64,000 nt of DNA, taken from positions 65,322-129,321 of IMG/VR virus record IMGVR_UViG_3300035180_000343; one strand, 5' to 3'. This document shows, piece after piece, positions 11,841 to 64,000 of the stretch. Every line of letters starts with the position of its first letter. Within the stretch, counting starts at the first letter, position 1. The DNA comes from a virus. Made by a program: the position numbers and the translations under genes. The notes under the pieces were generated by a model. That model saw nothing but the letters and a program-made list of their open reading frames with translations. It ran no database searches and was not told where the DNA came from.

Positions 11841-13263
11841 CAGATGGCACCGTAAAACCTTGGCCTTTATGTCAGGGATATAAGGCGTGTTTTTAACTTG
11901 TTCCAAGTATATATTAGTAAAACCATTTTGTCAAGTGCTTTGACAATAATGAGTTCGTCAAAGTTGAACAATTATATAAATATACGTATATGAAACAATT
12001 ACTCGCATACAAATATCGGATTTATCCAACAAAGGATCAAGAAATCCTCTTGAGCAAAACCTTTGGTTGTAAGAGAGTAATCTTCAACCATTACCTAGAA
12101 GTGCAGCAAACCAGATACAAAAACAAAGAACCTCGGTTAAGCAATTTCGACATCAACAAAGACATCACCAAGTTAAAAGATGAAAAGGAATGGTTGAGGG
12201 AAGTCGATATAAACGCACTACAAGCGGCGGCGGGAGATTTGTCTGTTGCATATGACAATTTCTTCAAGTCGGTTACTGGTAAGAGAAAAGGTCCGAAGAT
12301 TTCTCCACCGAAGTTCAAGAACAAAAATTCTAGACAGTCGTATAGGACTCGTAATGTTCGCGTCAATGAAGACGGTTCTTTACAGATACCAAAACTAAAG
12401 TCAGTCAAAGCAGCCATCCACAGAGAAATTCCAGAAGGATCGATAATTAAATCGGCGACCATATCAAGGAACCCAGATGGAAGATATTACGCATCAATAT
12501 TAGTTGAAACAGAAGTAGCATTGCAGCCAATGACAGGTAAAGAAGTCGGTTGCGATTTAGGTCTCAAGGATTTGTTAATCACTTCAAGTGGTATAAAATT
12601 CAAAAGACCCGATGATTTACCAAACATTGCGAGAACCAAGCAATTGTTGAAGTTGAAGCAAAGACAGTTCGCAAGAACCGTTAAAGGTAGCAAAAATCAC
12701 GAATCGTTAAGACTTCAAGTAGCACGACTTTATTCGAAGAGCACAAGACAAAGAAATGAATATTATCATCTAGTTAGCAGATACTTGGTTGATAATTACG
12801 ATTCTATCTACGTCGAAGACTTGTCGAGTAAAAATATGTTACAGAATAGGAAGTTGAGTCGAGCGATTCATGAAGTGGCTTGGACAACTTTGTCCAATAT
12901 GATTTCATATAAATCATCTTGGGCTGGTAAAACTTATCATCAAATCGATCGTTGGTATCCAAGTAGCAAGACCTGTAGCTCTTGTGGTCATAAGCTCGAG
13001 AAACTTGATCTTGGCACTAGAGAATGGACTTGTCCGTCTTGTGGAACTCATCATGATCGTGATTTAAATGCTGCTATGAACATTCTTCATGTCGGTCAAG
13101 CCGACTGCTACGGAGAAGAAATGAAGTCGCAAGCAACAGGCGACTTGGGACTAGAGATCCCAGTGGCCCTACAGAAAATGACCATTAAAATCGAGAGATC
13201 CAACGCTACGTTGGTTGGTCATGGGAGTGGGCAAGCTACGTCCTTTAGGGCGTGGTAGTTGAC
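11841..13263 (+). mobile_element. IS200/IS605-family tnpB-only (IS1341-like) element, copy 1
   Basis: TTTAT|CAGATGG left end; right-end hairpin ending GTAGTTGAC; no tnpA. Confidence 0.9.
11990..13258 (+). CDS. tnpB: TnpB RNA-guided nuclease
   Basis: AYKYRIYPT, GCDLG (RuvC-I), VEDL (RuvC-II), CxxC-CxxC, HDRDLNAA (RuvC-III). Confidence 0.97.
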   Translation: MKQLLAYKYRIYPTKDQEILLSKTFGCKRVIFNHYLEVQQTRYKNKEPRLSNFDINKDITKLKDEKEWLREVDINALQAAAGDLSVAYDNFFKSVTGKRKGPKISPPKFKNKNSRQSYRTRNVRVNEDGSLQIPKLKSVKAAIHREIPEGSIIKSATISRNPDGRYYASILVETEVALQPMTGKEVGCDLGLKDLLITSSGIKFKRPDDLPNIARTKQLLKLKQRQFARTVKGSKNHESLRLQVARLYSKSTRQRNEYYHLVSRYLVDNYDSIYVEDLSSKNMLQNRKLSRAIHEVAWTTLSNMISYKSSWAGKTYHQIDRWYPSSKTCSSCGHKLEKLDLGTREWTCPSCGTHHDRDLNAAMNILHVGQADCYGEEMKSQATGDLGLEIPVALQKMTIKIERSNATLVGHGSGQATSFRAW

Positions 13264-17906: not shown

Positions 17907-18659
17907 TTATTTATGGACATTTCGATACTTGACAATCATATCGATCATAACTTGTTCGTCTTGGTTTGGATTCTCACACTTTAAATAGGAATCCATTAAA
18001 TCATTTGCAAACTTGGATGTGCTTGGATCGACTTTATAAACTTCGTCAATTCCATTCAACTTCATTACGAGAAACCGTTTGACGCATTGTTTACATTCGC
18101 CACATGGGACTCCATCATTATGCCAACAACTTGTAGTTTCTTTCAGTTCTGGAATGATTTCTTTTCCGAATGTCTCGATAGCCCATTTTACGGTGTCAAC
18201 CTTTGACATCTTCTCTTCGACGAACGGAAACCTAACTTTACATCCATTGATGAATGGAGATAGCACATATGACAATACTTCCGAAGTCATTGCCCTAAAC
18301 TTTTCATTCTTGTCGGTTGCTTGTTCGTTGTCCTCGTCAAACAATGTCCCCATCCATACTTCATCTGGAAGTTCTTGGCTTGCGGCCAGAGTAGCAAATA
18401 CAAGATTCCTTCCAGGAATATAGATAGCAGATGCAAACGGATCAGACTTCTTGGACACGGGACGAATACCAGCTGGAGATAACCAATCAATAGTTCGAAT
18501 CTCAACATATTCTGGAAGTCGGTCAATCTCAACCTCTTCGGAATCTGCTCCATGTGCATAGTAAATACACTTTACATCCGCATCTGGATAATTCTTCTCG
18601 GCATATTTCTTCATCAGGAAACTGTCCAACCCACCACTATACAAAATCACAATCTTCAT
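17907..18659 (-). CDS. queC: 7-cyano-7-deazaguanine synthase QueC
   Basis: YSGGLDS, YIPGRN, SCW...CGECKQC. Confidence 0.9.
   Translation of the reverse strand: MKIVILYSGGLDSFLMKKYAEKNYPDADVKCIYYAHGADSEEVEIDRLPEYVEIRTIDWLSPAGIRPVSKKSDPFASAIYIPGRNLVFATLAASQELPDEVWMGTLFDEDNEQATDKNEKFRAMTSEVLSYVLSPFINGCKVRFPFVEEKMSKVDTVKWAIETFGKEIIPELKETTSCWHNDGVPCGECKQCVKRFLVMKLNGIDEVYKVDPSTSKFANDLMDSYLKCENPNQDEQVMIDMIVKYRNVHK
17908..17915 (-). promoter_or_regulatory. T4-type late promoter
   Basis: CATAAATA about 35 nt upstream of the NTase start. Confidence 0.6.
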
Positions 18660-18678: not shown

Positions 18679-19065
18679 TCATTTGTGCCTTACGTTCTCT
18701 TTAGTAACCAAATCGTGCACAATTCTAACAACTTTTACGTCAGGACACAACCTTTCAATTTCGTCGGCCTGGATTGGGTCGTCTTCGTAGTGAATTACTA
18801 TTTTCATGTCAAAAATAGAGTTCAACAGATTGATGGTTTTTCCTTTATGAGTCCCAGACGACAATCTACTCTTTTTGTCGAATGGAAGTGGATTGAAGAA
18901 GGGGTAATTCATAATCCCCCTACTCTTCAACATCGCTATCGTTTCTGGAATTTCTTCAAACGACCTTCCAGTGATAATGACATCGTTTTCTCTTGGAGTT
19001 AATCCAGGATATTCTCCCATGAAAATAACTCCGTCAATGTCATAACTCGCAATAGGATCATTCAT
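18679..19065 (-). CDS. HAD-superfamily phosphatase
   Basis: YDIDG, ITGR, K, YEDD motifs; overlaps ino1 stop. Confidence 0.8.
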   Translation of the reverse strand: MNDPIASYDIDGVIFMGEYPGLTPRENDVIITGRSFEEIPETIAMLKSRGIMNYPFFNPLPFDKKSRLSSGTHKGKTINLLNSIFDMKIVIHYEDDPIQADEIERLCPDVKVVRIVHDLVTKENVRHK

Positions 19066-20344
19066 AGTCAGTCTTTCCAGCTTGAAATGTATATGGAAGA
19101 TCTTTCGCCCTTGGCCGTTTGTCTTTTAGTTGAGGCTCAGTCAACTTTGTCAACACTCTCCTTGCAAGTGCATCACACTCAAACTTTGCATCGTTGGTTG
19201 AAAGTTGAAGAGGAGGAGTTTTCTGAGTCCAAGCAGAAGGACCACGCAAAAATCCAACGACTCCAAGTTCCGAAGCCACTTTGCAGAATCGAATTGCCGA
19301 GATAACCACTCCACCGGAATTAGGAGAATCTTGAACCGACATTCGACATGCAAGCTCATAACGAGCTCCAGCAAATCCGTAAGCAACTATGTCGATATTA
19401 CAAATCTTATTATCAGACCCAACATATTGTCCACCTGGTTTCTGATGAACAGTTAATGATGGGCCAGCATAGAGTGTCATTCCGGCAATTGATTCATTTC
19501 GAACCGAGTTTTGTCCCTTCAATACGTTTTCTTTTGAAACGTGTTTACTATGGAGCCTATCTTTGCTCGACATATTTAAGAAATCGGTATTTGCCGTTCT
19601 ACCAGTTCTAATATGTTCCTGACCCTGTGTGCTTCCCGCGCTCATATTAAGTTGAATATGCTGAGAAACTATAAGACCAGAATCGAGCATTGCTCCTTGG
19701 AGAACTTCGGAAAGTCTCGATGCTCCCCATGCCGACCGCATATCTGACCCAACAATTGTTAGCCCAGCATCAATAAATTTCTGTTCATATTCCATAGTCT
19801 CTTCGGTTGAAATTAGTGTCGGAATACAATTTACTACATGGCATTTTGCTTGAATTGCGGCGTCAATATAAAACCGACTTGCTTCTTCTGAACCAACTGG
19901 AAGGTAGTTAATTACTACGTCGACCTTATGATATTTTAAAAGATCGACAATTCGTTGGAACGGCTCGGCTGGAATTGCTCCAGTCCTAAATGAAACATCT
20001 TCTGGGAAATCTAGCATATAGGGAGCAACTCCGTCGAGCTCAGGTCCAGAGTAGACAATTGCTCCCTTTTCGACACACGCAGTCGGTCCAGTGTCAACAA
20101 TCTGCCGAACGTGGTCCATCGCACAATTTGGTTTAGCGCGAAGTGCTTCGATTAGTGGACGGTTAACTTTTCGAATATCAACATCAAACCCACAAACGAA
20201 TTCAATATCGTGAGCAGTATAACCCCCAATATCATGATACATCAACCCGACTTTATCGGTCGGGTTTTCATTGTAATATTGGACTCCCTCAACTAAACTT
20301 TTTGCACAATTTCCAACACCAACAATCGCGACTCTGATTTTCAT
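19058..20344 (-). CDS. ino1: myo-inositol-1-phosphate synthase
   Basis: IVGVGNCA, NYLPVGSEEA, VNCIP, DSPNSGGV, KTPP. Confidence 0.92.
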   Translation of the reverse strand: MKIRVAIVGVGNCAKSLVEGVQYYNENPTDKVGLMYHDIGGYTAHDIEFVCGFDVDIRKVNRPLIEALRAKPNCAMDHVRQIVDTGPTACVEKGAIVYSGPELDGVAPYMLDFPEDVSFRTGAIPAEPFQRIVDLLKYHKVDVVINYLPVGSEEASRFYIDAAIQAKCHVVNCIPTLISTEETMEYEQKFIDAGLTIVGSDMRSAWGASRLSEVLQGAMLDSGLIVSQHIQLNMSAGSTQGQEHIRTGRTANTDFLNMSSKDRLHSKHVSKENVLKGQNSVRNESIAGMTLYAGPSLTVHQKPGGQYVGSDNKICNIDIVAYGFAGARYELACRMSVQDSPNSGGVVISAIRFCKVASELGVVGFLRGPSAWTQKTPPLQLSTNDAKFECDALARRVLTKLTEPQLKDKRPRAKDLPYTFQAGKTDYE

Positions 20345-20363: not shown

Positions 20364-21790
20364 CAGTTAGTGCCATAAAATCTTGGTCTTTAGGCCAAAA
20401 ATATAAGGCGTGGTTTTCAACTTGTTTTAATAGTGTATATTAGTGGAATGATTTTGTCAAGTGCTTTGACAAAATTATTTCGTCAAAGTTGAACAATTAT
20501 ATAAATACGTAATATGAAACAATTTATCTCGTACAAATATCGGATTTATCCAACAGAAGACCAACAAGTTCTTCTGAGTAAAACCTTTGGCTGTAAACGA
20601 GCGATTTTCAACCATTACCTTGAAATACAGGAAACTCGATTTAAAAACAAAGAACCTCGGTTAAGCAATTTCGACATCAATAAAGACATTACCAAACTGA
20701 AGAAAGAAAAGGAATGGCTATATGAAGTTGATAATGCTGCATTACAATCTTCTGCTGAAGACTTAACAAAAGCATACGACAATTTCTTCAAGTCGGTTAC
20801 TGGTAAGAGAAAAGGTCCGAAGATATCTCCACCGAAGTTCAAGAACAAGAATTCGCGCCAATCATATAGAACTCACTACGTTCACGTTAATGAAGACGGA
20901 ACACTGCATATTCCGAAACTAAAGTCAGTCAAAGCAGCCATCCACAGAGAAATTCCAGAAGGATCGAAAATTAAATCGGCGACCGTTTCAAGAAATCCTG
21001 ACGGAAGATATTATGCATCAATTTTAGTAGAAACAGAAGTAACATCAAGGCCGATGACCTATCGGGAAGTCGGTTGCGATTTAGGTCTCAAGGATTTGTT
21101 AATTACCTCAAGTGGTATAAAATTCAAGAGGCCAGATGAATTGCCGAACATTGCGAGAACCAAGCAATTATTGAAGTTGAAGCAAAAACAGTTCGCGAGA
21201 ACCGTTAAAGGTAGCAAAAATCACGAATCTTTAAGACTCCAAGTAGCACGGCTTTATTCGAAGAGCACAAGACAAAGAAACGAATATTATCATCTAGTTA
21301 GTAGATACTTGGTTGATAATTACGATTCTATCTACGTTGAAGACTTGTCGAGTAAAAATATGTTACAAAACAGGAAGTTGAGTCGAGCAATCCACGAAGT
21401 GGCGTGGTCAACCTTGTCTGGGATGATCCAGTACAAATCATCTTGGGCTGGTAAAACTTATCATCGGATTGATCGTTGGTATCCAAGTAGCAAGACTTGC
21501 TCTTCTTGTGGTCATAAACTTGAAACACTTGACCTCGGCACCAGAGAATGGACTTGTCCGAACTGTGGAACTCATCATGACCGTGATTTAAATGCTGCTA
21601 TGAACATTCTTCATGTCGGACAATCCGACTGTTATGGAGAAGCAATAAAGTCGCATGCAATAGGCGACTTGGGACTAGAAATCCCATCGGCCCTACAGAA
21701 AATGACCATTAAAATCGAGAGATCCAATGCTAATGTGTTGGTTGGTCATGGGAGTGGGCAAGCCGCGTCCTTTAGGAAGCGGTAGTTGAC
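20364..21790 (+). mobile_element. IS200/IS605-family tnpB-only element, copy 2
   Basis: TATAT|CAG left end; right end GGTAGTTGAC. Confidence 0.9.
20514..21785 (+). CDS. tnpB: TnpB RNA-guided nuclease
   Basis: RuvC D/E/D intact, zinc finger. Confidence 0.97.
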   Translation: MKQFISYKYRIYPTEDQQVLLSKTFGCKRAIFNHYLEIQETRFKNKEPRLSNFDINKDITKLKKEKEWLYEVDNAALQSSAEDLTKAYDNFFKSVTGKRKGPKISPPKFKNKNSRQSYRTHYVHVNEDGTLHIPKLKSVKAAIHREIPEGSKIKSATVSRNPDGRYYASILVETEVTSRPMTYREVGCDLGLKDLLITSSGIKFKRPDELPNIARTKQLLKLKQKQFARTVKGSKNHESLRLQVARLYSKSTRQRNEYYHLVSRYLVDNYDSIYVEDLSSKNMLQNRKLSRAIHEVAWSTLSGMIQYKSSWAGKTYHRIDRWYPSSKTCSSCGHKLETLDLGTREWTCPNCGTHHDRDLNAAMNILHVGQSDCYGEAIKSHAIGDLGLEIPSALQKMTIKIERSNANVLVGHGSGQAASFRKR

Positions 21791-21795
21791 CAAGC

Positions 21796-23067
21796 TCAAA
21801 AGAAACTACTGATGTCGACTTGCTTTTCTTTCACTGCAACTGATTTCATTGACGATTTAAAAATGTTCGACCATTCGTCAAAATCTGTTTTTGTATCTAC
21901 ATCTTGAAACGAACGATACATCGAAAACTTTTTCATGTCAACAACATCCTCAAGTCTTGGAGCAGACAAGAATGTTTTTATAGCTTCCAACAATGCCAAA
22001 CTCGATGTAACAGCAAATGCCGTCCATACTCTAACAATCTCATTCTTATCTTTTCCAGCAGCAATATGTTTTTCGTTGCTGCTGTTGATTACATTGTGTA
22101 GGTGCTTTGGGCTATGGACTCCATCCAACTGGTCTATCTCTTTGATTTTGTTGAATATTTTTTCATATGCTACTTGGTCATAATGCCGTCCAAATGAAAA
22201 TTGATTTTGGTCTGGACCGTCCGCAACATAAAAACAACCTTTTGTGATTCCACTTGTATGAGATGTCGAATCGAAACTTAAAATAACATCTGAATTTCTA
22301 CCATCTCTAAAGCATACCAAGTTTGGTACGAGCCGACGCATTGATCCAACACCCAAAAGGTGAATCTGTTTGTTTTTTAGATTATATTTTCGAAGTATTT
22401 GGAAACTAGCGAATGTTCGAACAAAGGATTCATATTCTCCATTTCCAAGTGAGGTTGAACCAAGAGAAATTCCACCTAAGTAGTCATGATAATCTGGGGG
22501 AAGTTCGTTCAGAATAATATCCGCCCATTGTAAAAAAGTGTCGACATCATTTCCCTGAACAATCATCAATGGTTTGCTAACTGTTCCGAATTCTCTAAAG
22601 GCGTCGATTTGCTCTTTCAGATTAGCTGCCGAATCCTTCGCACACTTTACGAAAATATCCTTATCGAAGAATCTGTCACCAGTGCTACCAATCTTTGAGG
22701 AAGCAGTTGGGGTATAAAGAGGAATCTCGTCAAACGACATCGCAATTGTTGAGTTCTTTGCTTGAGACTCATATATTTTTCGCTTGATGCCAGAGTCAAT
22801 CTTCGACCCACGAGTGATAATTTGAAGACCGCCAGAATCAGCATGAATATCACAAATTACATCTCGTAGATATTTGTTCAGTACATCTCCTCCCGATTTT
22901 TCCGTAAATGCGTTATATAACATTCCAAGAGAATATCCTTTTGCCTTTACCTTTTTGAATAAATTGCGAAGGAACTCGGTATTCTCTTCTGTATAAGACG
23001 AATTCATCAAGAGTTTTGGATATCCAACTCCAGACATAATGTAGTGGAACCGATCAACATCAACCAT
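21796..23067 (-). CDS. dpdA: TGT-fold DNA 7-deazaguanine transglycosylase (DpdA/DpdA2-like)
   Basis: HADSGGLQ, MSFDEIP, HLLGVG, SFDSTS; fused stop/start with folE. Confidence 0.8.
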   Translation of the reverse strand: MVDVDRFHYIMSGVGYPKLLMNSSYTEENTEFLRNLFKKVKAKGYSLGMLYNAFTEKSGGDVLNKYLRDVICDIHADSGGLQIITRGSKIDSGIKRKIYESQAKNSTIAMSFDEIPLYTPTASSKIGSTGDRFFDKDIFVKCAKDSAANLKEQIDAFREFGTVSKPLMIVQGNDVDTFLQWADIILNELPPDYHDYLGGISLGSTSLGNGEYESFVRTFASFQILRKYNLKNKQIHLLGVGSMRRLVPNLVCFRDGRNSDVILSFDSTSHTSGITKGCFYVADGPDQNQFSFGRHYDQVAYEKIFNKIKEIDQLDGVHSPKHLHNVINSSNEKHIAAGKDKNEIVRVWTAFAVTSSLALLEAIKTFLSAPRLEDVVDMKKFSMYRSFQDVDTKTDFDEWSNIFKSSMKSVAVKEKQVDISSFF

Positions 23068-23744
23068 TATTTTTGCCTTGCTAAAGAAAGAAATTCTTGT
23101 CGAGCACTTGGATTATCTCTAAACGCACCCGACAAGAAACTTGTCGATGTTGTTGCTCCAGTTGACTCAACACCTCTCCATGAAACGCAAAAATGTTCAC
23201 ATTCCATTACAACGGCGACATCGTCTGTCTCACAAATAAATTTTACTGTTTCACCAATCTGTTGGGTCTGAAGTTCTTGGAGTGTCGGGCGGCGAGAAAA
23301 ATATTCAACAATTCGTGGGAGTTTAGATAGTCCCAATGCAATATTCTTGGGCTTATAAGCAATTGTGCATGTTCCAACAATCGGAACAATATGATGAGAG
23401 CAGCTACTTTTCACTGGAATATTATGCTCGATAACAATCTCATCATAATGGTGGTCATTTGGAAACCCAGTACACTTGGGGAAATTTTCGGGTTTCAGAC
23501 CCCACATTGTTTCTTTAACTAACATCTTCGCAACTCGTTTTGGAGTGTCAACATGGGATGGGTTTGTCATATCCATACCAATAGTCGTCAACATTTCCAA
23601 AACATTCTGTTGAATTTTCTCAATTTTTTCATCGTCTGGAACATTTAACATTGCTTCATCTACCGCACTTTCGAGGTGCAAAGATTTTAAATGTTGAAGA
23701 ACCTTCAATCCAAGAACTGGATCACATTTCGTTGATTGTAGCAT
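23067..23744 (-). CDS. folE: GTP cyclohydrolase I
   Basis: DTPKRVAK, CSHH, GLSKLPR, LQE, HFCVSWRG. Confidence 0.95.
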   Translation of the reverse strand: MLQSTKCDPVLGLKVLQHLKSLHLESAVDEAMLNVPDDEKIEKIQQNVLEMLTTIGMDMTNPSHVDTPKRVAKMLVKETMWGLKPENFPKCTGFPNDHHYDEIVIEHNIPVKSSCSHHIVPIVGTCTIAYKPKNIALGLSKLPRIVEYFSRRPTLQELQTQQIGETVKFICETDDVAVVMECEHFCVSWRGVESTGATTSTSFLSGAFRDNPSARQEFLSLARQK

Positions 23745-27468: not shown

Positions 27469-28893
27469 CAGGTGGCGCCGTAAAACCTTGGCCTTCAGGC
27501 CAGGGATATAAGGCGTGCTTTTTAACTCGTTCCAATAGTATATGTTAGTGAAACCATTTTGTCAAGTGCTTCGACGAAATAATTTCATCAGAATTAAATA
27601 ATTGTATAAATACGTATATGAAACAATTACTCGCATTCAAATATCGGATTTACCCGACAAAGGATCAAGAAATCCTCTTGAGTAAAACCTTTGGCTGCAA
27701 GCGAGCAATCTTCAATCATTACCTAGAAGTGCAGCAAACCAGATACAAAAACAAAGAACCTCGGTTAAGCAATTTCGACATCAACAAAGACATCACCAAA
27801 CTAAAAGATGAGAAGGAATGGTTAAGGGAAGTCGATTCGGTTGCTCTACAATCTTCTGCTGAAGATCTAACAAAAGCATATGACAATTTCTTCAAATCCG
27901 TAACTGGTAAAAGAAAAGGTCCAAAGATTTCGCCACCGAAGTTCAAGAACAAGAATTCACGTCAGTCGTATCGAACTCGTAATGTTCGAATTAATGAAGA
28001 CGGTTCGTTACAAATACCGAAACTAAAGTCAGTCAAAGCAGCCATCCATAGAGAAATCCCAGAAGGATCGGTGATCAAGACAACGACCATTTCGAGGAAT
28101 CCAGATGGAAGATATTATGCATCAATTTTAGTAGAAACAGAAGTAGCACTGCAACCAATGACCCATAGGGAAGTCGGTTGCGACCTCGGGTTAAAGGATT
28201 TGCTTATCACCTCAAGAGGTATAAAATTTAAAAGACCAGATGAATTACCGAACATTGCGAGAACCAAGCAATTGTTAAAAGCAAAGCAAAAACAGTTCGC
28301 AAGAACTGAAAAGAGTAGCAAAAATCACGAATCTTTAAGACTTCAAGTGGCACGTTTATATTCAAAGGTCACCCGACAAAGAAATGAATATTATCATCTA
28401 GTTAGTAGATACTTGGTTGATAACTATGACTCCATCTATGTCGAAGACTTGTCGAGTAAGAACATGCTACAAAACAGGAAGTTGAGTCGAGCGATTCATG
28501 AGGTAGCTTGGTCAACCTTATCTGGGATGATCCAATATAAATCATCTTGGGCTGGTAAAACTTATCATCGGATTGATCGTTGGTACCCAAGCTCAAAGAC
28601 CTGTTCTAGTTGTGGTCATAAACTTGAAACACTTGACCTCGGCACCAGAGAATGGACTTGTCCAGATTGCGGAACTCATCATGATCGTGATTTGAATGCT
28701 GCTATGAACATTCTTCAGGTCGGTCAAGCCGACTGCTACGGAGAAGCAATAAAGTCGCATGCAATAGGCGACTTGGGAGAAATCCCATCGGCCCTACAGA
28801 AAATGATCATTAAAATCGAGAGATCCAATGTTGATACGTTGGTTGGTCATGGGAGTGGGCAAGCCGCGTCCTATAAAGGACGCGGTAGTTGAC
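27469..28893 (+). mobile_element. IS200/IS605-family tnpB-only element, copy 3
   Basis: TTTAT|CAGGTGG left end; right end GGTAGTTGAC. Confidence 0.9.
27618..28892 (+). CDS. tnpB: TnpB RNA-guided nuclease
   Basis: RuvC D/E/D intact, zinc finger. Confidence 0.97.
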   Translation: MKQLLAFKYRIYPTKDQEILLSKTFGCKRAIFNHYLEVQQTRYKNKEPRLSNFDINKDITKLKDEKEWLREVDSVALQSSAEDLTKAYDNFFKSVTGKRKGPKISPPKFKNKNSRQSYRTRNVRINEDGSLQIPKLKSVKAAIHREIPEGSVIKTTTISRNPDGRYYASILVETEVALQPMTHREVGCDLGLKDLLITSRGIKFKRPDELPNIARTKQLLKAKQKQFARTEKSSKNHESLRLQVARLYSKVTRQRNEYYHLVSRYLVDNYDSIYVEDLSSKNMLQNRKLSRAIHEVAWSTLSGMIQYKSSWAGKTYHRIDRWYPSSKTCSSCGHKLETLDLGTREWTCPDCGTHHDRDLNAAMNILQVGQADCYGEAIKSHAIGDLGEIPSALQKMIIKIERSNVDTLVGHGSGQAASYKGRGS

Positions 28894-34445: not shown

Positions 34446-34501
34446 TTATAAATCCCTTTGTAAAATTGTAGTATAACTGAAAATGTCTGACTTGTCAAAC
34501 C

Positions 34502-41322: not shown

Positions 41323-41718
41323 TTAAAGCGTTGTTCGTTCTAAAGAATGTTCGATGAAGTCGAGCGCGTTCTCTATTGCGACAAGTTGATGTCGAAGTTC
41401 AGAAAACAGTGGAGGATATTCTTCTGGGAGAATGTGATCTTTCTCTTTAAATGGTGGAATGTTAGATGCCATTACTGGATACAACTTTACGTTCACCGAT
41501 TCTGCAAGGCGTTCTGCTCTTTGAACTATATGTTTTGCTAATGCTACTACATCTGTTGCCACTGATGAGTGTTCAACTGTCTCGAGACTCTCTTGATGAT
41601 TGCGGAAAGTCGTATTAATTTTCTGATTCATTCTATTTTCTCCTTTACTTGTTTTCATCATTATTACACAACGATATACCAGTCTTCTGAAAGCATATCT
41701 GTCTGACTGGCAAGCCAA
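41323..41718 (-). CDS. hypothetical protein (start probably MNQKINT)
   Basis: ORF. Confidence 0.5.
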   Translation of the reverse strand: MACQSDRYAFRRLVYRCVIMMKTSKGENRMNQKINTTFRNHQESLETVEHSSVATDVVALAKHIVQRAERLAESVNVKLYPVMASNIPPFKEKDHILPEEYPPLFSELRHQLVAIENALDFIEHSLERTTL

Positions 41719-41951
41719 CCTGGCAGCATCGCCTGGCGCCCATTCGAGTCAACAGTCCACATATCAATATGCGGCAGAATTTCACAACTATCTGTTTGTA
41801 AGGCATCGTGGTATGGGGTTCCTTCTTTCAACCTCGCATCCTTCGTTCCTGGAACAAGAATAAGCCACATGCCCTTTCCGTTCCATCCGACGCGAGAAAC
41901 TTTCTCGCCGGATTTAAGTGCTTCAATGGCTTCGCCAAAGTTCATATTCAT
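41664..41951 (-). CDS. tad2: DUF2829 / Tad2-like nucleotide-signal sponge
   Basis: MNFGEAIEALKSGEKVSRVGWNGKGMWL...WLASQTDMLSEDW. Confidence 0.75.
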   Translation of the reverse strand: MNMNFGEAIEALKSGEKVSRVGWNGKGMWLILVPGTKDARLKEGTPYHDALQTDSCEILPHIDMWTVDSNGRQAMLPGWLASQTDMLSEDWYIVV

Positions 41952-42007
41952 TTCCTTTACGGTATGTTCCCTGAGTGGGCAGGGGGCTAACCCATTTTGT
42001 AAATTCA

Positions 42008-43081
42008 TTACGACCTTCTAAGGTACTTGAGCCAAATACGTTCAGATTGATTAACAAAACTTTTCAAGTAGAATCGTTCGACTGTAACATTTACTGGTTT
42101 CATCGCCCAAACAATCCTCATTTTACACGAGATATCATCGGAATCGTTAGGAGATGCATTGAACATTGGCGCGGCCCATTTAACCTCATTCCCAGTTACA
42201 ATTGGCACGCCAGCAGTAACCATATCAGCGGCAATGATGTTGAAGGTCTCACTGAAGTTCACTTGCAACCCGATGTCAATTTTAGAAGAAATCAATTTCA
42301 TAAACTGTTCATGTGGCATCCATGGATGCTCAATAAGTTTGTGACCATTAACACTAAGTCTAACAAAAAGTTCTCGAAGATTCTTTAGAATTGGATCTCC
42401 GTTGCCTTCTACTCGATTGCCATTGATATGGAAATGTAACTTTTTACCAATACGCCGTGCAAACTTTAAAGCAGCCACTGCTTGTAGTAGTTGATTCTTC
42501 AATGGACGAACAGCACCGAAACATCCAACCGAAACATAGTCTTTAGAAGAATCATATTTCTTTATTGGAAGAGGGGAACTAATGTCATAGTAATTGGGGA
42601 GGAATACAACCTTTTCTTTCACTTTATGGGACGGCCATCCAAAATGATGACCAATCAAGAACTCAAGCTCTTCTTGTATGACATCCGAGTTCCCCGAAAC
42701 CGAAACATTAGGATGCTCAACAAATCGGAATAACCAATTCATTGCAATTCCTTCGGTTGCTACGAATGGAACTTCCGAGTGAAACCTAATGATCCATTTT
42801 ACATTGGGGTGCAGTTTTGTCAGCACTTCGAATTTCTCTGGCACTACCCAAAGAGCTTCAATTATTACATGAGTTGGGCGAAATTCTGTTACAACTTTAT
42901 CAATTGAATTATTATCCTCTACCACGGCAAGCTCAGAGCATATACCATTTTTTAATAGCATATCTTTTACAAACCGAGCCGAGTTTAGTAGACCCGTTGA
43001 GACTCCCGAATGTGAATAGGATTCATGTTGGCTGTAATCTTCACGACGTTTGCAAATAAATAAAACTCTTTTACTTTTCAT
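42008..43081 (-). CDS. GT-B glycosyltransferase-like protein
   Basis: CFGAVRPLKNQL, FSETFNIIAADMVTAGVP (EX7E-like). Confidence 0.75.
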   Translation of the reverse strand: MKSKRVLFICKRREDYSQHESYSHSGVSTGLLNSARFVKDMLLKNGICSELAVVEDNNSIDKVVTEFRPTHVIIEALWVVPEKFEVLTKLHPNVKWIIRFHSEVPFVATEGIAMNWLFRFVEHPNVSVSGNSDVIQEELEFLIGHHFGWPSHKVKEKVVFLPNYYDISSPLPIKKYDSSKDYVSVGCFGAVRPLKNQLLQAVAALKFARRIGKKLHFHINGNRVEGNGDPILKNLRELFVRLSVNGHKLIEHPWMPHEQFMKLISSKIDIGLQVNFSETFNIIAADMVTAGVPIVTGNEVKWAAPMFNASPNDSDDISCKMRIVWAMKPVNVTVERFYLKSFVNQSERIWLKYLRRS

Positions 43082-43107
43082 CTTGTGTTCTCCATCGAAC
43101 CATTTTA

Positions 43108-43393
43108 GTCAACTACCACGCCCTAAAGGACGTAGCTTGCCCACTCCCATGACCAACCAACACATCAGCATTGGATCTCTCGATTTTACTAGTCATTTTC
43201 TGTAGGGCCGATGGGATTTCTAGTCCCAAGTCGCCTGTTGCTTGCGACTATACTACTTCTAGTTACTTTGACAAAATCATTTCACTAGGTAAAATGTAAT
43301 AATTTGGTTCTCGTCATTACATGGTTATTTATACAAATTAAAAGCACGCCTTATATCCCTGGCCTGAAGGCCAAGGTTTTACGGCACCATCTG
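43108..43393 (-). mobile_element. 286-bp non-autonomous tnpB-IS derivative: left end plus omegaRNA scaffold
   Basis: TTAT|CAGATGG left end; 142-nt scaffold 43249-43108 ending GTAGTTGAC; tnpB deleted. Confidence 0.9.
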
Positions 43394-43428
43394 ATAAGCA
43401 GGTTCATCGAGAACCCTTCGATATTTAT

Positions 43429-43458
43429 CAGATGGCGTCATAAAACCTTAGCCTTTAG
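43429..43458 (+). mobile_element. isolated IS left-end remnant
   Basis: TTTAT|CAGATGGCGTCATAAAACCTTAGCCTTTAG. Confidence 0.75.
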
Positions 43459-43777
43459 ATATGGCAGTTGGATTTTCAAAACAAATTTCAACGAGATGTT
43501 CTAATGTATTGATAAAATACTCGCCTTCGCCAATATACACATTAGGACTTTCTGTTTCTTGTTTGTTTCGATCATATATAAACCACATCAGCCAATCGAA
43601 ATTATTAGCGCCAATAACTTCTTTTAACAGATTATCCCTGTTATTCCAAAACGAATCTGGAACCAAGGTCAAAATGCTATTATCTTCTCCGAATGCTTCA
43701 CTAATTTTGTCGACGCGTTGGTTATAATCTTCAGTAGCCTGGACGTATTCTTTTACGATTTCCAAGAAGTTAGCCAT
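43448..43777 (-). CDS. hypothetical protein
   Basis: ORF; stop codon lies in the left-end remnant. Confidence 0.6.
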   Translation of the reverse strand: MANFLEIVKEYVQATEDYNQRVDKISEAFGEDNSILTLVPDSFWNNRDNLLKEVIGANNFDWLMWFIYDRNKQETESPNVYIGEGEYFINTLEHLVEICFENPTAISKG

Positions 43778-43993
43778 TACATCATCCTTTGATAAGTTAG
43801 TAGTTTTCTTTTGTAATACGATATTCCGAACCTTTATATTCTTCTTTCTTTTCTTTCAACAACTTATTAGCTTCTTCGACTGTTAGGCACTGTTTATTGA
43901 AGAGAGTTTTGTATCCCTCTGCTACGATGACGTGCCATGTCTTCATATTGTGAGATGTTGCCATTTTAGTTCTCCTATTTACTTCTATCTAGA

Positions 43994-44069
43994 AGGAGTC
44001 TAGGTGGATTCGAACCACCGACCTCGCGTTTATCAGATCGCGCGCTCTAACCACCGAGCTTCAGACTCC
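43994..44069 (-). tRNA. tRNA-Ile(GAT)
   Basis: GGAGTCT/AGACTCC acceptor, CT-GAT-AA loop, GGTTCGAATCC; one extra base in anticodon stem; no encoded CCA. Confidence 0.85.
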
Positions 44070-44076
44070 TAAATTT

Positions 44077-44153
44077 TGGTGGGCCCGCACGGACTTGAAC
44101 CGTGGACCAAAGGATTATGAGTCCTCTGCTCTAACCAACTGAGCTACAGGCCC
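44077..44153 (-). tRNA. tRNA-Ile2(CAT)
   Basis: GGGCCTG..., GAGGA-CTCATAA-TCCTT, CCA encoded; IleX-like. Confidence 0.9.
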
Positions 44154-44160
44154 TAAATTT

Positions 44161-44350
44161 TGGCGGGCTATGGCCTCAAACCCCGGCCCGTCGAATAAAA
44201 GAGTGTAGGTCAGGTCGCTATATCGTTCGGTGTGTTCCCAACCGGATAACGGATCGAAATCCCCGATTTCTACCAGCTACATACTATGCGGCTGGCTACC
44301 CCGAACAAACGTCTTATATCGACGAATACCCCTCACTGCTACACTTAAAA
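44161..44350 (-). ncRNA. unknown structured RNA ending in CCA
   Basis: nested long-range stems between two tRNAs; no ORF. Confidence 0.6.
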
Positions 44351-44356
44351 CTTCAT

Positions 44357-44439
44357 TGCACGGCCGAGTGGACTCGAACCACCATACTCCAGTTACTCGG
44401 TTAACGTCCGCTTAGAAGGCGGATGAGATACGGCCGTGC
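44357..44439 (-). tRNA. non-canonical tRNA-like RNA with TCT (Arg) anticodon
   Basis: 9-bp acceptor, TCCGC-CTTCTAA-GCGGA, T-arm GGTGG-TTCGAGT-CCACT; no D-arm. Confidence 0.7.
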
Positions 44440-44533
44440 ATTAAAGTTTCATCAACTAACTTTTTGATGTTTCTTTAACATCACAAACAAATTTTAACTT
44501 CTTTTTGTCGCGATGTCAAGAACTTTTACGAAA

Positions 44534-44836
44534 TCACGCTTCTTCGAACAGTTCGTTAAATGTATCGGCGGTATATACGAAAAAGTTTCCATGCGCGTCT
44601 CGAACAACCCAATCACCTGGCTCGGCAATGTAGTATCCATCAAATGTCGGAATGAGGAGAACTTCATTGACCCATCTGGCATATCTTTTACTGTTAAATT
44701 TTGAATCAGCGAACAACCTCGAGTTAATCCAGTCTAACACCAAATAACTATCTGCGTCGTTGAGAAACTGTTGTGCCTCAATGAACTCCGGTTTTTTCCT
44801 AAATATTTTAACATTCACTGACATTTTAATCTCCAA
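44534..44836 (-). CDS. paralog of 5980..6249 family
   Basis: RKKPEFIEA...PGDWVV. Confidence 0.65.
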   Translation of the reverse strand: MEIKMSVNVKIFRKKPEFIEAQQFLNDADSYLVLDWINSRLFADSKFNSKRYARWVNEVLLIPTFDGYYIAEPGDWVVRDAHGNFFVYTADTFNELFEEA

Positions 44837-45045
44837 ATTTACTTCACTTCAAGAAATCGAACCTTGAATCCAGAATCTTGCATTTCATTAGCAAACTTCA
44901 ACGCCGATTCCTCAGATTTAAATGCACGAAAATCAACCATAACCGAATCCACAAACACTATAACTTTAAACATCTTGTTCTCCTTCACTGTTTAACCACA
45001 CTATGAACAAATTGTTAGAATTCCGAGCTGAAGCTCGGAATAAAA

Positions 45046-54087: not shown

Positions 54088-54106
54088 TCAACTACACTGT
54101 AAACAA

Positions 54107-54135
54107 ATTATAAAAGAAAACTGAAACATTGTCAA
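54107..54135 (-). promoter_or_regulatory. repeated sigma70 early promoter copy 11
   Basis: TTGACA-17-TATAAT. Confidence 0.85.
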
Positions 54136-54185
54136 GAACTTTTCGAAAGATTTTGTTCTTTAGAATTCGTTCTTTAAATGTTTCA

Positions 54186-54324
54186 GTTAACTGCCACGCC
54201 CTAAAGGACGTAGCTTGCCCACTCCCATGACCAACCAGCATTGTACTGGATCTCTCGATTTTAACGATCATTTTCTGTAGGGCCATTGGGATTTCTAGTC
54301 CCAAGTCGCCTATTGCATGCGACT
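54186..54324 (-). ncRNA. orphan TnpB omegaRNA (reRNA) scaffold
   Basis: 139-nt homolog of tnpB 3' end from AGTCGC hairpin to GCAGTTAAC; no tnpB, no left-end terminus. Confidence 0.85.
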
Positions 54325-54387
54325 ATACTATTTTTAGTTACTTTGACAAAATCATTTCACTAAATAATATATACATGCAATCAACTT

Positions 54388-60554: not shown

Positions 60555-61660
60555 ACCGTTTCCGCCTGTTGAGCTTTAACCAAAAGATCTCGCATATAGT
60601 TTTTCAATGTTTCCTTGTCTAGATCAGTTTGAATCTCAGAATTTATGAAATCTGAAATGAACTCGAAAGTGTCCTTCGACGCCGACCTAATTTTGTCCTC
60701 GTCAATCGTCCCACCTTCAGCAAGAATCTCAGACGTCATATCGACAATAGAAATGTTAAACGCGCCACTATTATATAACTTATCGGCGAACTCTTCAAAT
60801 AATAATAAGTCCTGCTTCTTCTCAACGATCAACTTGACGTATTTGTTTTTAATTTTAGATGAGATTTCGTCAAACTTTGAGATTATTTCTTTGACATCGT
60901 TTTTGTTCGTGTCGTCGTAATAAAGTTTAATGAAATTCTTAAATGGATTTTGGATGAACTCGAGCTCATAATTGCCGTCTGTTCCAGTTAATATATGAAA
61001 CCCACGCTTGGAACCACAGTCTCCCCAATTGAATTCCATAGGAGACCCAAGATAATGAATATTATCCGAGCTCGATTTCTCATGATAATGACCAGACAAC
61101 ACGATTGGAAATTTCTCTAGAAAATCTCGAGACACTTGACCGTGAGACGAAACTACATTCTGAAGATACTTAAACCCAGAAAGTTCGAGGTGGGCGAAAA
61201 CTATATTTGAACTAGAATTTACTAAAGCATCGGTAGATTGTTGAGTGCTGAACGTATTGATCCATGGAAGAAAAAGACACAGTTCCCCTTGAATGTCAAC
61301 CTCTTTTGGATTAGAAAATACTTGAATATTGGATTGATATTCAGACTTAACTAGCAAGTCAAGAGAATTCAGCTCGTTCGTATTTTTCATCGCAGTATCA
61401 TGGTTTCCGACTAGCATATAACACTTAATGTCATGCTTCACAAGTTGATCGAAAAAATATTCTTTGGCAAGTGCTAACGTGTGATGATTGGTAAATTTCC
61501 TTCTATCAAAGAAATCCCCAAGATGAACGATTGTCTTTATGTTTCTCGATATGAGTTCGGGAAAGAAATGTTGTTCATAATATTCTTTGAAGATATTATG
61601 AAATAAAACCGAATCTCCGCGTGTTCCCCAATGGGTGTCAGAAATTAGAGCAACCTTCAT
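60551..61660 (-). CDS. 47: recombination endonuclease subunit gp47 (Mre11-like)
   Basis: SDTHWG, HLGDFFD, GNHD, SGHYH. Confidence 0.95.
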   Translation of the reverse strand: MKVALISDTHWGTRGDSVLFHNIFKEYYEQHFFPELISRNIKTIVHLGDFFDRRKFTNHHTLALAKEYFFDQLVKHDIKCYMLVGNHDTAMKNTNELNSLDLLVKSEYQSNIQVFSNPKEVDIQGELCLFLPWINTFSTQQSTDALVNSSSNIVFAHLELSGFKYLQNVVSSHGQVSRDFLEKFPIVLSGHYHEKSSSDNIHYLGSPMEFNWGDCGSKRGFHILTGTDGNYELEFIQNPFKNFIKLYYDDTNKNDVKEIISKFDEISSKIKNKYVKLIVEKKQDLLLFEEFADKLYNSGAFNISIVDMTSEILAEGGTIDEDKIRSASKDTFEFISDFINSEIQTDLDKETLKNYMRDLLVKAQQAETV

Positions 61661-63176: not shown

Positions 63177-63593
63177 TTAATTTTGACCTCTATTTTGTTT
63201 TAAATAGTCTAACAACTGTTCTGAGCTGCCGACGAATACGGTATTGTTTACTTGAGTATTATTCTGATTTGTCGGAACAATATTTTGTTCTATGCGTTCC
63301 GCCTTATCGAGATTATATAACTGAACTGCCATCTCTCCAAGATTTTTCATAAAAGTTGAAGCAACCTCAAATGCTCGAGGACTTTCAGATTCTTTTGCTA
63401 AGTCAACTAGCGCATCGAAAACCGTTCTAGAGGTCTCGACGATTTCTCTAATTGTATCTTTTGCTAAAGTTTGATCCGACGAAAGTTCAACTTCTTGTTT
63501 TACGACTGGAAGAGAAGCGGGTTGATCTATGGTTGCCACATCCGTGGTAGCAACCATAGGGTTCATGTTTAGAAGATTTTCAACTGTTTTCAT
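63177..63593 (-). CDS. 16: terminase small subunit gp16
   Basis: AKESESPRAFEVA, NNTVFVGSSEQL; CATAAATA late promoter upstream. Confidence 0.88.
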   Translation of the reverse strand: MKTVENLLNMNPMVATTDVATIDQPASLPVVKQEVELSSDQTLAKDTIREIVETSRTVFDALVDLAKESESPRAFEVASTFMKNLGEMAVQLYNLDKAERIEQNIVPTNQNNTQVNNTVFVGSSEQLLDYLKQNRGQN

Positions 63594-63611
63594 ACACGTA
63601 TTTATGTGATG

Positions 63612-64000
63612 TCAAACGAGTTCCTCAAACGAGTTCGCTACGTCCTTATCTTCCCTGACCCCAATGAATCGTGGAAGGAACAATGACCATCCTCCCTTCT
63701 CATCCTGAATTTTAACATTGTAACGAACTGTGACAATCTTGTCAAAAATTGCGTCTGGGGTCAGTTCTTTTCGCTGTTTGTCCGAAAATCCAGACCCGAC
63801 TCCGACACGAACTATCATATCTCGGGTTGCACAAATCAGGTTGCCAAGACATTGGGAATATTTCCCTTGACCGAGTTCCCATCCAACCACAATCAAGTCA
63901 GCTTCTTGTTCGGCTTTGAATTTACAAAGATCCTTGGATCTGGAACCTTTCCACTTCGACTCGATGTTTTTAACGATGATTCCTTCCTCTCCAGCTTCAA
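63612..64000 (-). CDS. 30: ATP-dependent DNA ligase, 3' part (truncated by window edge)
   Basis: EGIIVKN...CKFK, VGVGSGFSD, FLPRF. Confidence 0.9.
   Translation of the reverse strand, partial: EAGEEGIIVKNIESKWKGSRSKDLCKFKAEQEADLIVVGWELGQGKYSQCLGNLICATRDMIVRVGVGSGFSDKQRKELTPDAIFDKIVTVRYNVKIQDEKGGWSLFLPRFIGVREDKDVANSFEELV

Follow-up and report, generated by a model that had tools for sequence, protein, structure and literature searches.

A 286-nt element without tnpB in a T4-like phage retains a conserved omegaRNA scaffold and may borrow TnpB in trans

Retention of, and homing at, their own insertion site is the usual selfish logic of IS200/IS605 elements, and insertion or excision of such an element leaves a precise joint without target duplication. 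Stand-alone omegaRNAs are known from bacterial genomes, and descriptions of them still give no established biological role. As summarised in PMC10691335, which cites Altae-Tran 2021, mobilised omegaRNAs of this kind lack an effector and have been shown to act in trans with compatible effectors. PATEs are stated to "often encode omegaRNAs", and the omegaRNAs of the Geobacillus stearothermophilus PATEs need the TnpB of other copies, with TnpA mobilising the elements in trans (Meers 2023, doi 10.1101/2023.03.14.532601). For ISDra2, a scaffold of 116 nt suffices for cleavage, and the overlapping C-terminal domain of TnpB is dispensable (PMC10097598). Moreover, the ISDra2 TnpB processes its own transcript, the 5' processing being TnpB-dependent (PMC10278001). 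A review describes "non-restorative homing", by which elements enter co-infecting phages or plasmids without the help of TnpA (PMC13565253). As to phages, full-text searches of the literature yielded only sporadic mentions of tnpB and no description of phage mini-elements of the kind reported here.

The element described in the following, M1, is located on the viral contig IMG/VR IMGVR_UViG_3300035180_000343, which comprises 129 kb and is 71% complete, i.e., 29% of the genome is missing. The stretch analysed, called the window, covers 64,000 nt (bases 65322-129321 of the record), and all positions refer to the window unless the contig is named. It is the replication/nucleotide-metabolism half of a T4-like phage of lytic (virulent) lifestyle and encodes a family-B DNA polymerase, the large subunit of ribonucleotide reductase (RNR), a DnaB-like helicase, a gp46-like SbcC, an RNA ligase and a UvsX-like RecA, with nearly all genes on the minus strand. 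Besides, a match to the permuted tmRNA family Rfam RF04321 (39735-39983, minus strand; 79.9 bits, E 1e-13, full model length) would represent a phage-encoded two-piece tmRNA. The features at and around M1 and the related copies of the window are compiled in Table 1.

Table 1. Positions of M1, its parts and neighbours, and the related elements in the 64,000-nt window
Feature	Position	Strand	Remarks
Full element A	11841..13263	+	tnpB 11990-13258; scaffold 13125-13263; covariance model 166 bits
Full element B	20365..21790	+	tnpB 20514-21785; scaffold 21649-21790
Full element C	27469..28893	+	tnpB 27618-28892; scaffold 28753-28893
Downstream gene	42008..43081	-	ORF of 357 aa; ATG at 43081
Guide-equivalent flank	43088..43107	-	directly 3' of the M1 right end; overlaps the RBS of the downstream gene
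M1, complete non-autonomous element, 286 nt, left to right end	43108..43393	-	end homology to the three tnpB elements
Scaffold of the omegaRNA, 142 nt, hairpin 1 to GTTGAC	43108..43249	-	covariance model 167.5 bits
TTGTCA-16-TATAGT, sigma70-like box	43247..43274	-	10/12 positions
TTGACA-16-TAAAAT, sigma70-like promoter match, would fire outward through the left end	43268..43295	+	11/12 positions
Module of ~45 nt with late box and 7-bp hairpin	43288..43332	-	M1-type mini-elements only
TATAAATA, putative T4-type late-promoter box	43326..43333	-	77 nt upstream of the scaffold
Left-end tip of M1 with subterminal hairpin, ~61 nt	43333..43393	-	89-97% identity with the A and C left ends
TTAT, transposon-adjacent motif (TAM), 5' of the M1 left end	43394..43397	-	TTAT in 9/13 family members
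tiny2, degenerate element of ~44 nt	43429..43472	+	left-end tip fused to right-end tip; own TTAT at 43425-43428
M2, sister copy with omegaRNA only, without left-end tip	54186..54373	-	scaffold 54186-54324; 163.6 bits

Both ends of M1 carry subterminal hairpins, and both have homologous counterparts in the family members that code for protein. On the minus strand, TTAT is followed by CAGATGG from 43393 onward and the element ends with GTTGAC at 43108, in agreement with the original prediction. BLAST comparisons within the window give the left-end tip an identity of 81-97% with its counterparts in the three tnpB elements, and the scaffold (43249-43108) is 86-91% identical to their 3' ends, copy B being the closest (91%), which bears out the claim of a 142-nt 3' region common to all three tnpB copies. 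Likewise, the deletion stops where it was predicted to stop, as M1 becomes homologous to the full copies again exactly where scaffold hairpin 1 begins with its 5' arm, AGTCGC. The assumption that the left end is joined directly to the scaffold had to be given up: in between lie the ~45-nt module and ~38 nt, including TTGTCA...TATAGT, that form the end of the M1 leader and are homologous to the stretch directly upstream of tnpB in the full copies. In total, ~144 nt of left end and leader precede the scaffold, of which the leader accounts for ~80 nt. The module recurs in the mini-elements L006m, L012m and L016m; neither M2 nor the left ends of full-length copies contain it. Among the 13 family members, those without TTAT at the left-end flank show ATAT, TTAC or TCAT there, with one case unresolved. 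No ORF of at least 40 aa was found on the element strand of M1, and the tnpB matches in the contig are confined to the three full elements, with none at M1.

The fold of the scaffold is a four-way multi-stem structure of 39 pairs, derived from an alignment of 21 sequences, 12 of them inside intact tnpB genes and nine non-coding. In this alignment 99.4% of the scaffold cells are paired, compared to 25-46% with slid partners, and compensatory changes on both sides occur in 11 of the 39 pairs, a number reached in none of 500 shuffles. One such double swap, GC to CG in hairpin 1, occurs in L005 alone, a copy that is non-coding. Folded as a single sequence, the M1 scaffold reaches a z-score of -3.5. 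The covariance model detects exactly five complete scaffolds in the contig; as M1 is the best match among them, its scaffold shows no decay. In the full copies, the scaffold coincides with tnpB codons 379-422 and ends at the element boundary. In L005 and L013, both non-coding, indels break the reading frame, yet nearly all scaffold pairs are intact, and conservation in these copies therefore acts on the RNA and not on a peptide. For the same reason, a peptide translated from the retained C-terminal frame of TnpB was ruled out. Additionally, the loop of hairpin 1 (CAAY, columns 10-13) and GTTG (columns 146-149, i.e., -6 to -3) form a candidate pseudoknot, 98.8% paired and almost invariant. Rfam holds no family matching the scaffold at gathering or relaxed thresholds. 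Given that 116 nt are enough for ISDra2, 142 nt would be ample. The original prediction of a TnpB-less derivative with an omegaRNA is supported, the scaffold being intact and structurally conserved according to covariation and the covariance model. With regard to hairpin 3 (alignment A3, columns 76-93), M1 resembles copy B, M2 resembles L001 and L012, and L013 resembles copy C and L014. This sharing of variants, combined with a deletion junction of apparently single origin, suggests that mini and full elements exchange sequence by gene conversion.

The TnpB proteins of copies A, B and C comprise 422-424 aa, possess three TnpB Pfam domains each, are mutually 88-90% identical and match the ISDra2 TnpB (8EXA/8H1J) with an E value of 3e-67. 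With the RuvC triad D189/E276/D358 and the Zn finger (both CxxC pairs) retained, all three are predicted to be catalytically intact, and loading of the M1 omegaRNA in trans is plausible since these proteins are encoded in the same genome. A Y1 TnpA was not found in the 129-kb contig (71% complete). Five other viral contigs (L080-L083 and L087) encode an intact one of 127-135 aa with HUH motif and catalytic Tyr, oriented divergently to a tnpB which is 80-82% identical to copy A and followed at its 3' side by the same scaffold family (142-154 bits). In these tnpA-bearing relatives, e.g., L080:1396-3123, the subtype of the end hairpin differs from that of the phage studied here (GTCC...GGGC). Copy B lies among genes for QueC (17907-18659), a myo-inositol-1-phosphate-synthase-like ORF (19058-20344) and GTP cyclohydrolase I (FolE; 23067-23744), an arrangement suggestive of a gene cluster for DNA modification of the 7-deazaguanine type into which element B has inserted. 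As FolE and QueC are encoded, the phage DNA may bear 7-deazaguanine modifications, and these could hinder cleavage by TnpB. Element-free sites corresponding to the tnpB elements of L012, L017, L014 and L008 are present in this phage at contig positions 1644-1891, 18402-18666 and 26875-27103 and at window positions 63482-63724. Comparison of occupied and empty sites of full-length elements between such diverged phages does not give clean joints, 8-25 nt being replaced, and the TAM-proximal (seed) positions of the guide differ, so that these sites would be poor targets. Possible reasons for the unclean junctions are sequence divergence, imprecise repair and evasion of cleavage.

As regards transcription, the T4 late box TATAAATA was verified at 43333-43326, where it had been predicted. 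Only four occurrences exist in the 64-kb window: three on the plus strand (11975, 20500 and 27605), which sit 5-7 nt before the ATG of the tnpB genes, and the fourth on the minus strand in M1 (43326). No obvious Shine-Dalgarno sequence was recognised at the tnpB genes (n = 3). The box is kept in the sister mini-elements L006 and L012, and it is common in the other half of the contig, with nine of ten occurrences on the plus strand, which is taken to be the strand of the late and structural genes there. As the -10 box of a T4-type late promoter, used by a gp55-type sigma factor, TATAAATA may serve M1 and the tnpB genes. Read-through from upstream genes is an equally simple source of the precursor RNA and is plausible because M1 is co-oriented with its neighbours and no terminator-like site was found between them. 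The TTGTCA-16-TATAGT box, originally proposed to drive the RNA, does exist at 43274-43247, but it overlaps the scaffold and its spacing as a promoter is not conserved in the sister copies. The TATAGT hexamer reaches 3 nt into the scaffold, so that transcripts beginning ~7 nt further on would lack the 5' arm of hairpin 1; the spacer measures 16, 16, 13 and 10 nt in sister copies; and sigma70-like matches around M1 occur at chance density (four found vs 3.1 +/- 1.6 in shuffles). For these three reasons, the box was ruled out as a conserved driver of the RNA. In the full copies, the position aligned to its -10 hexamer is occupied by TATAAATA, and the left ends contain the same opposite-strand TTGACA. 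TTGTCA probably belongs instead, as -35 box (TTGACA), to the stronger promoter match on the opposite strand.

M1 belongs to a dispersed family. An exact scan of IMG/VR with an invariant 22-nt core of the scaffold retrieved 17 loci in other viral contigs, and the invariant 20-nt core gave one chance match only, in a coding region of Nitrospirota, among 185,579 genomes of cellular species. Complete mini-elements with the junction of M1 and the 45-nt module were found at unrelated sites in L006/L011, L012 and L016, and L005, L013 and M2 share the junction without a left end. All of these copies, M1 included, combine the shared junction with differing flanks, the junction being shortened by 3-6 nt in some of the sister mini-elements. 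The presence of the same derivative at several sites points to a transposed family and not to a one-off deletion. M2 is 87% identical to M1 over 196 nt and shows the same deletion junction; in this copy, CAG stands in place of the tnpB stop codon TAG, and GTTAAC replaces GTTGAC at the right end. Its leftover C-terminal TnpB frame forms an ORF of 70 aa (54092-54304, minus strand) that runs into non-genic flank; it was considered as a real peptide and set aside, being a product of the TAG-to-CAG change that ends in non-genic sequence and is probably meaningless. In L016 (2285-2651), an M1-type mini-element together with an inverted right-end/left-end remnant replaces 25 nt which, in the phage studied here, contain a consensus TTGACA-17-TATACT promoter 3' of the DNA polymerase gene (34471-34499, minus strand).

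Apart from the M1 type, two independent deletion types were recognised. In L007/L009, a tnpA remnant is fused 45 nt upstream of the scaffold, and in L004/L077 (one contig) an internal deletion that keeps the frame has left a tnpB ORF of 108 aa. This ORF (L077:2504-2830, minus strand) joins the N-terminal HTH to the Zn-ribbon/TNB C-terminus, adjoins a C-terminal remnant of a Y1 tnpA and possesses an intact scaffold. All three deletion lineages retain the whole scaffold. The contig fragments bearing sister mini-elements lack tnpB, but these fragments are just 3-10% complete. Moreover, two tips-only elements of ~45 nt were observed, one at contig 61258-61302 (L076, outside the window) and one at window 43429-43472 on the plus strand (tiny2), each preceded by TTAC or TTAT and too short for any omegaRNA. 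Tiny2 lies head-to-head with M1, gives an inverted match to the left-end tips and has the same fusion junction as its counterpart. Such elements look like minimal TnpA substrates, and their existence means that ends alone can persist. The family therefore spans the full series from tnpA plus tnpB via tnpB only and omegaRNA only to tips only.

The five guides of the contig each have one perfect match in it, namely their own flank, and these flanks are preceded by GTTGAC or GTTAAC and not by the TAM. No other guide site with fewer than 2 mismatches was found in the 129-kb contig; for the M1 guide, no other contig match with <=2 mismatches appeared, and the near matches examined do not follow TTAT. 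Since a guide is the flank of the element's own insertion, it is the insertion site that determines the guide. Nothing indicates that guides are programmed toward other loci, and the natural target would be the empty allele. The multi-guide RNA-programmed nuclease system which the original prediction had derived from this arrangement is thus overstated, as each guide has its own flank, devoid of a TAM, as sole perfect match. The flank was further said to be the RBS region of a glycosyltransferase gene. The RBS is present, with GGAG at 43093-43090 within the 20 nt after GTTGAC, at a distance of 8 nt from the start codon (ATG, 43081); the gene label is only a lead, as searches of Pfam and PHROG with the downstream gene gave no match and a GT1/GT4-like glycosyltransferase is possible by the names of ESM-Atlas neighbours only. 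M1 has the same orientation as this gene and ends 26 nt 5' of its start codon.

Evidence for an empty allele came from contigs of four public DNA metagenomes (four studies; microbial mat and sediment), which were compared over window positions 41500-45000. None of the sequencing runs listed for the locus was an RNA run. Three runs show a contig with a joint between 43107 and 43394, i.e., exactly the 286 nt of M1 are absent, with the intervening letters at these joints not determined and the shorter side comprising only 30-43 nt. The fourth run (X4) shows 43105, AAT and 43395 in succession, which is an empty site with TTAA for TTAT and a changed first guide position. Read on the minus strand, the empty joint consists of TTAT directly followed by the flank, without target duplication, and equals exactly the TAM plus target expected for the M1 guide. 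As a rough figure, depth in run X1 is 77 for the joint contig vs ~222 for the flanking contigs, and occupied and empty alleles both appear common. On this basis, an element-free allele appears to co-circulate, M1 being polymorphic and not fixed. A third allele with a joint from 43107 to 43462 (runs X1 and X4) lacks 68 nt beyond M1 as well and matches no element boundary. The empty allele was not recovered when viral contigs were searched for exact copies of the right or the left flank of M1, nor by a scan of metagenome contigs with an 18-mer of the guide, whose 24 matches were all in unrelated coding sequence. Related loci reached via the downstream gene (<=55% amino acid identity) and the upstream ORF (58%) are too diverged to show the M1 site.

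It is rather probable that M1 is a non-autonomous, PATE- or MITE-like IS200/IS605 element of an ISDra2-like family in T4-like phages, whose omegaRNA borrows TnpB in trans. Such an element would have originated by a single internal deletion that removed tnpB from just after the promoter region to the first omegaRNA hairpin and would then have spread as a unit. Its RNA would be transcribed late from the minus strand, from its own TATAAATA and/or by read-through from upstream phage genes. TnpB from A, B or C, expressed from their own TATAAATA boxes, would bind the 142-nt scaffold in trans and trim the leader, and the complex with ~16 nt of flank as guide would cut TTAT plus flank, which is the element-free allele, either in co-infecting relatives or arising after excision. 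The occupied locus would be immune, as its target is preceded by GTTGAC and not by TTAT. The T4 recombination system supports homing. Phage recombination, for which UvsX-like and gp46-like genes are present, could copy M1 back and thereby bring about retention and over-inheritance. Jumps to new sites would require a Y1 TnpA such as the one carried by the autonomous relatives, the contig itself being without one. More tentatively, and with the odds rather against it in our estimation, the TnpB/omegaRNA elements of this phage lineage as a whole may drive their own RNA-guided homing from one co-infecting phage to another, for the most part without TnpA. The mini-elements (M1, M2 and relatives) would then be guide-only hyperparasites which code for no protein and owe their super-Mendelian inheritance to borrowed TnpB, expressed from a late promoter.

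These readings have to be weighed against simpler or more beneficial roles of M1. It could be a passive MITE or relic, moved only by TnpA acting on its ends, with the omegaRNA part as a recent, unused leftover. The 45-nt tips-only elements, by which ends alone are seen to persist or move, agree with this, and at 86-91% similarity to the full copies there was perhaps too little time for decay. However, three independent deletion lineages retain the entire 142-nt scaffold, compensatory changes occur in a non-coding copy, the frame-breaking indels of L005 and L013 spare nearly all scaffold pairs, and M1 scores highest against the family covariance model. The late-promoter box of the M1 lineage, moreover, lies in a module missing from full-length left ends. 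Hence passive persistence is considered rather doubtful. A far less credible version of a role without the RNA would be a mobile promoter or regulatory insert, in which M1 matters mainly for the promoters delivered to the downstream gene. Promoter-like boxes on both strands, the late box and the position of M1 26 nt upstream of the start codon in the same orientation fit such an insert, but it leaves the conservation of scaffold fold and transposon ends unexplained, the sigma70-like matches are at chance density and the sister copies occur in varied contexts; we regard it as very improbable.

Conversely, the RNA itself may have been domesticated, M1 and M2 being extra guides of a multi-guide TnpB nuclease that serves the phage, for instance by destroying competitor phages at these loci or by regulating the downstream gene. 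M2, L005 and L013 have lost the left end and still possess an intact scaffold, as if the RNA and not mobility had been kept; the late box of M1 matches the tnpB promoters; and competitors would be targetable given the co-circulating empty allele. Nevertheless, the guides are dictated by the insertion site and have no further match in the genome, M1 keeps intact transposon ends and is polymorphic rather than fixed, a TldR-like repressor role is unlikely with catalytically intact TnpB, and the self locus has no TAM. Besides, competitor killing and homing would be one biochemical act, the difference lying mainly in who benefits. A domesticated stand-alone guide-RNA gene is therefore judged unlikely, and the non-autonomous element that borrows TnpB is the reading we retain.

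This phage offers an unusually clean natural test bed, with three intact TnpBs and two guide-only derivatives (M1 and M2) in one genome, putative late promoters on the nuclease genes and on one guide gene, and apparently an empty target allele in the same samples. If M1 were over-inherited in mixed infections in a TnpB-dependent manner, a protein-less RNA gene could act as a homing element, and TnpB elements could spread in lytic phages without a transposase. If the homing-drive reading holds, the family would constitute an RNA-guided counterpart of the Seg and Mob endonuclease genes.

In comparison with the described systems, M1 resembles the stand-alone OMEGA omegaRNA loci (PMC10691335) in lacking tnpB and tnpA, in the presence of effector-bearing copies in the same genome and in the flank acting as guide. 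Unlike those loci, M1 resides in a virulent T4-like phage, carries a putative T4-type late-promoter box and apparently co-circulates with an empty allele. With the Geobacillus stearothermophilus PATEs (Meers 2023), it shares the minimal left and right ends and the absence of a protein gene, whereas M1 is located on a phage contig without tnpA and is part of a degradation series across phage contigs from tnpA plus tnpB to the 45-nt tips. As in the ISDra2 TnpB-omegaRNA (8EXA/8H1J; PMC10097598), the scaffold lies within the C-terminal coding region and folds into several stems, and the TAM is found 5' of the left end; in contrast to ISDra2, the inferred TAM is TTAT and not TTGAT, the pseudoknot is a candidate only and the RNA is unrelated at the Rfam level. 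The free-standing homing endonucleases Seg and Mob of T-even phages (PMC2988022, PMC2330249) provide an analogy and not a membership: an element-free allele is cut in a co-infecting relative, and recombinational repair leads to over-inheritance. Unlike in Seg and Mob, recognition by M1 would be RNA-guided, with the nuclease encoded elsewhere in the genome. The concept of guide-only elements has therefore already been published, and what M1 and its family add to it is the setting: the phage is lytic and T4-like, the nuclease genes as well as the guide bear late-promoter boxes, every stage of degradation is represented, and target and element apparently coexist in nature.
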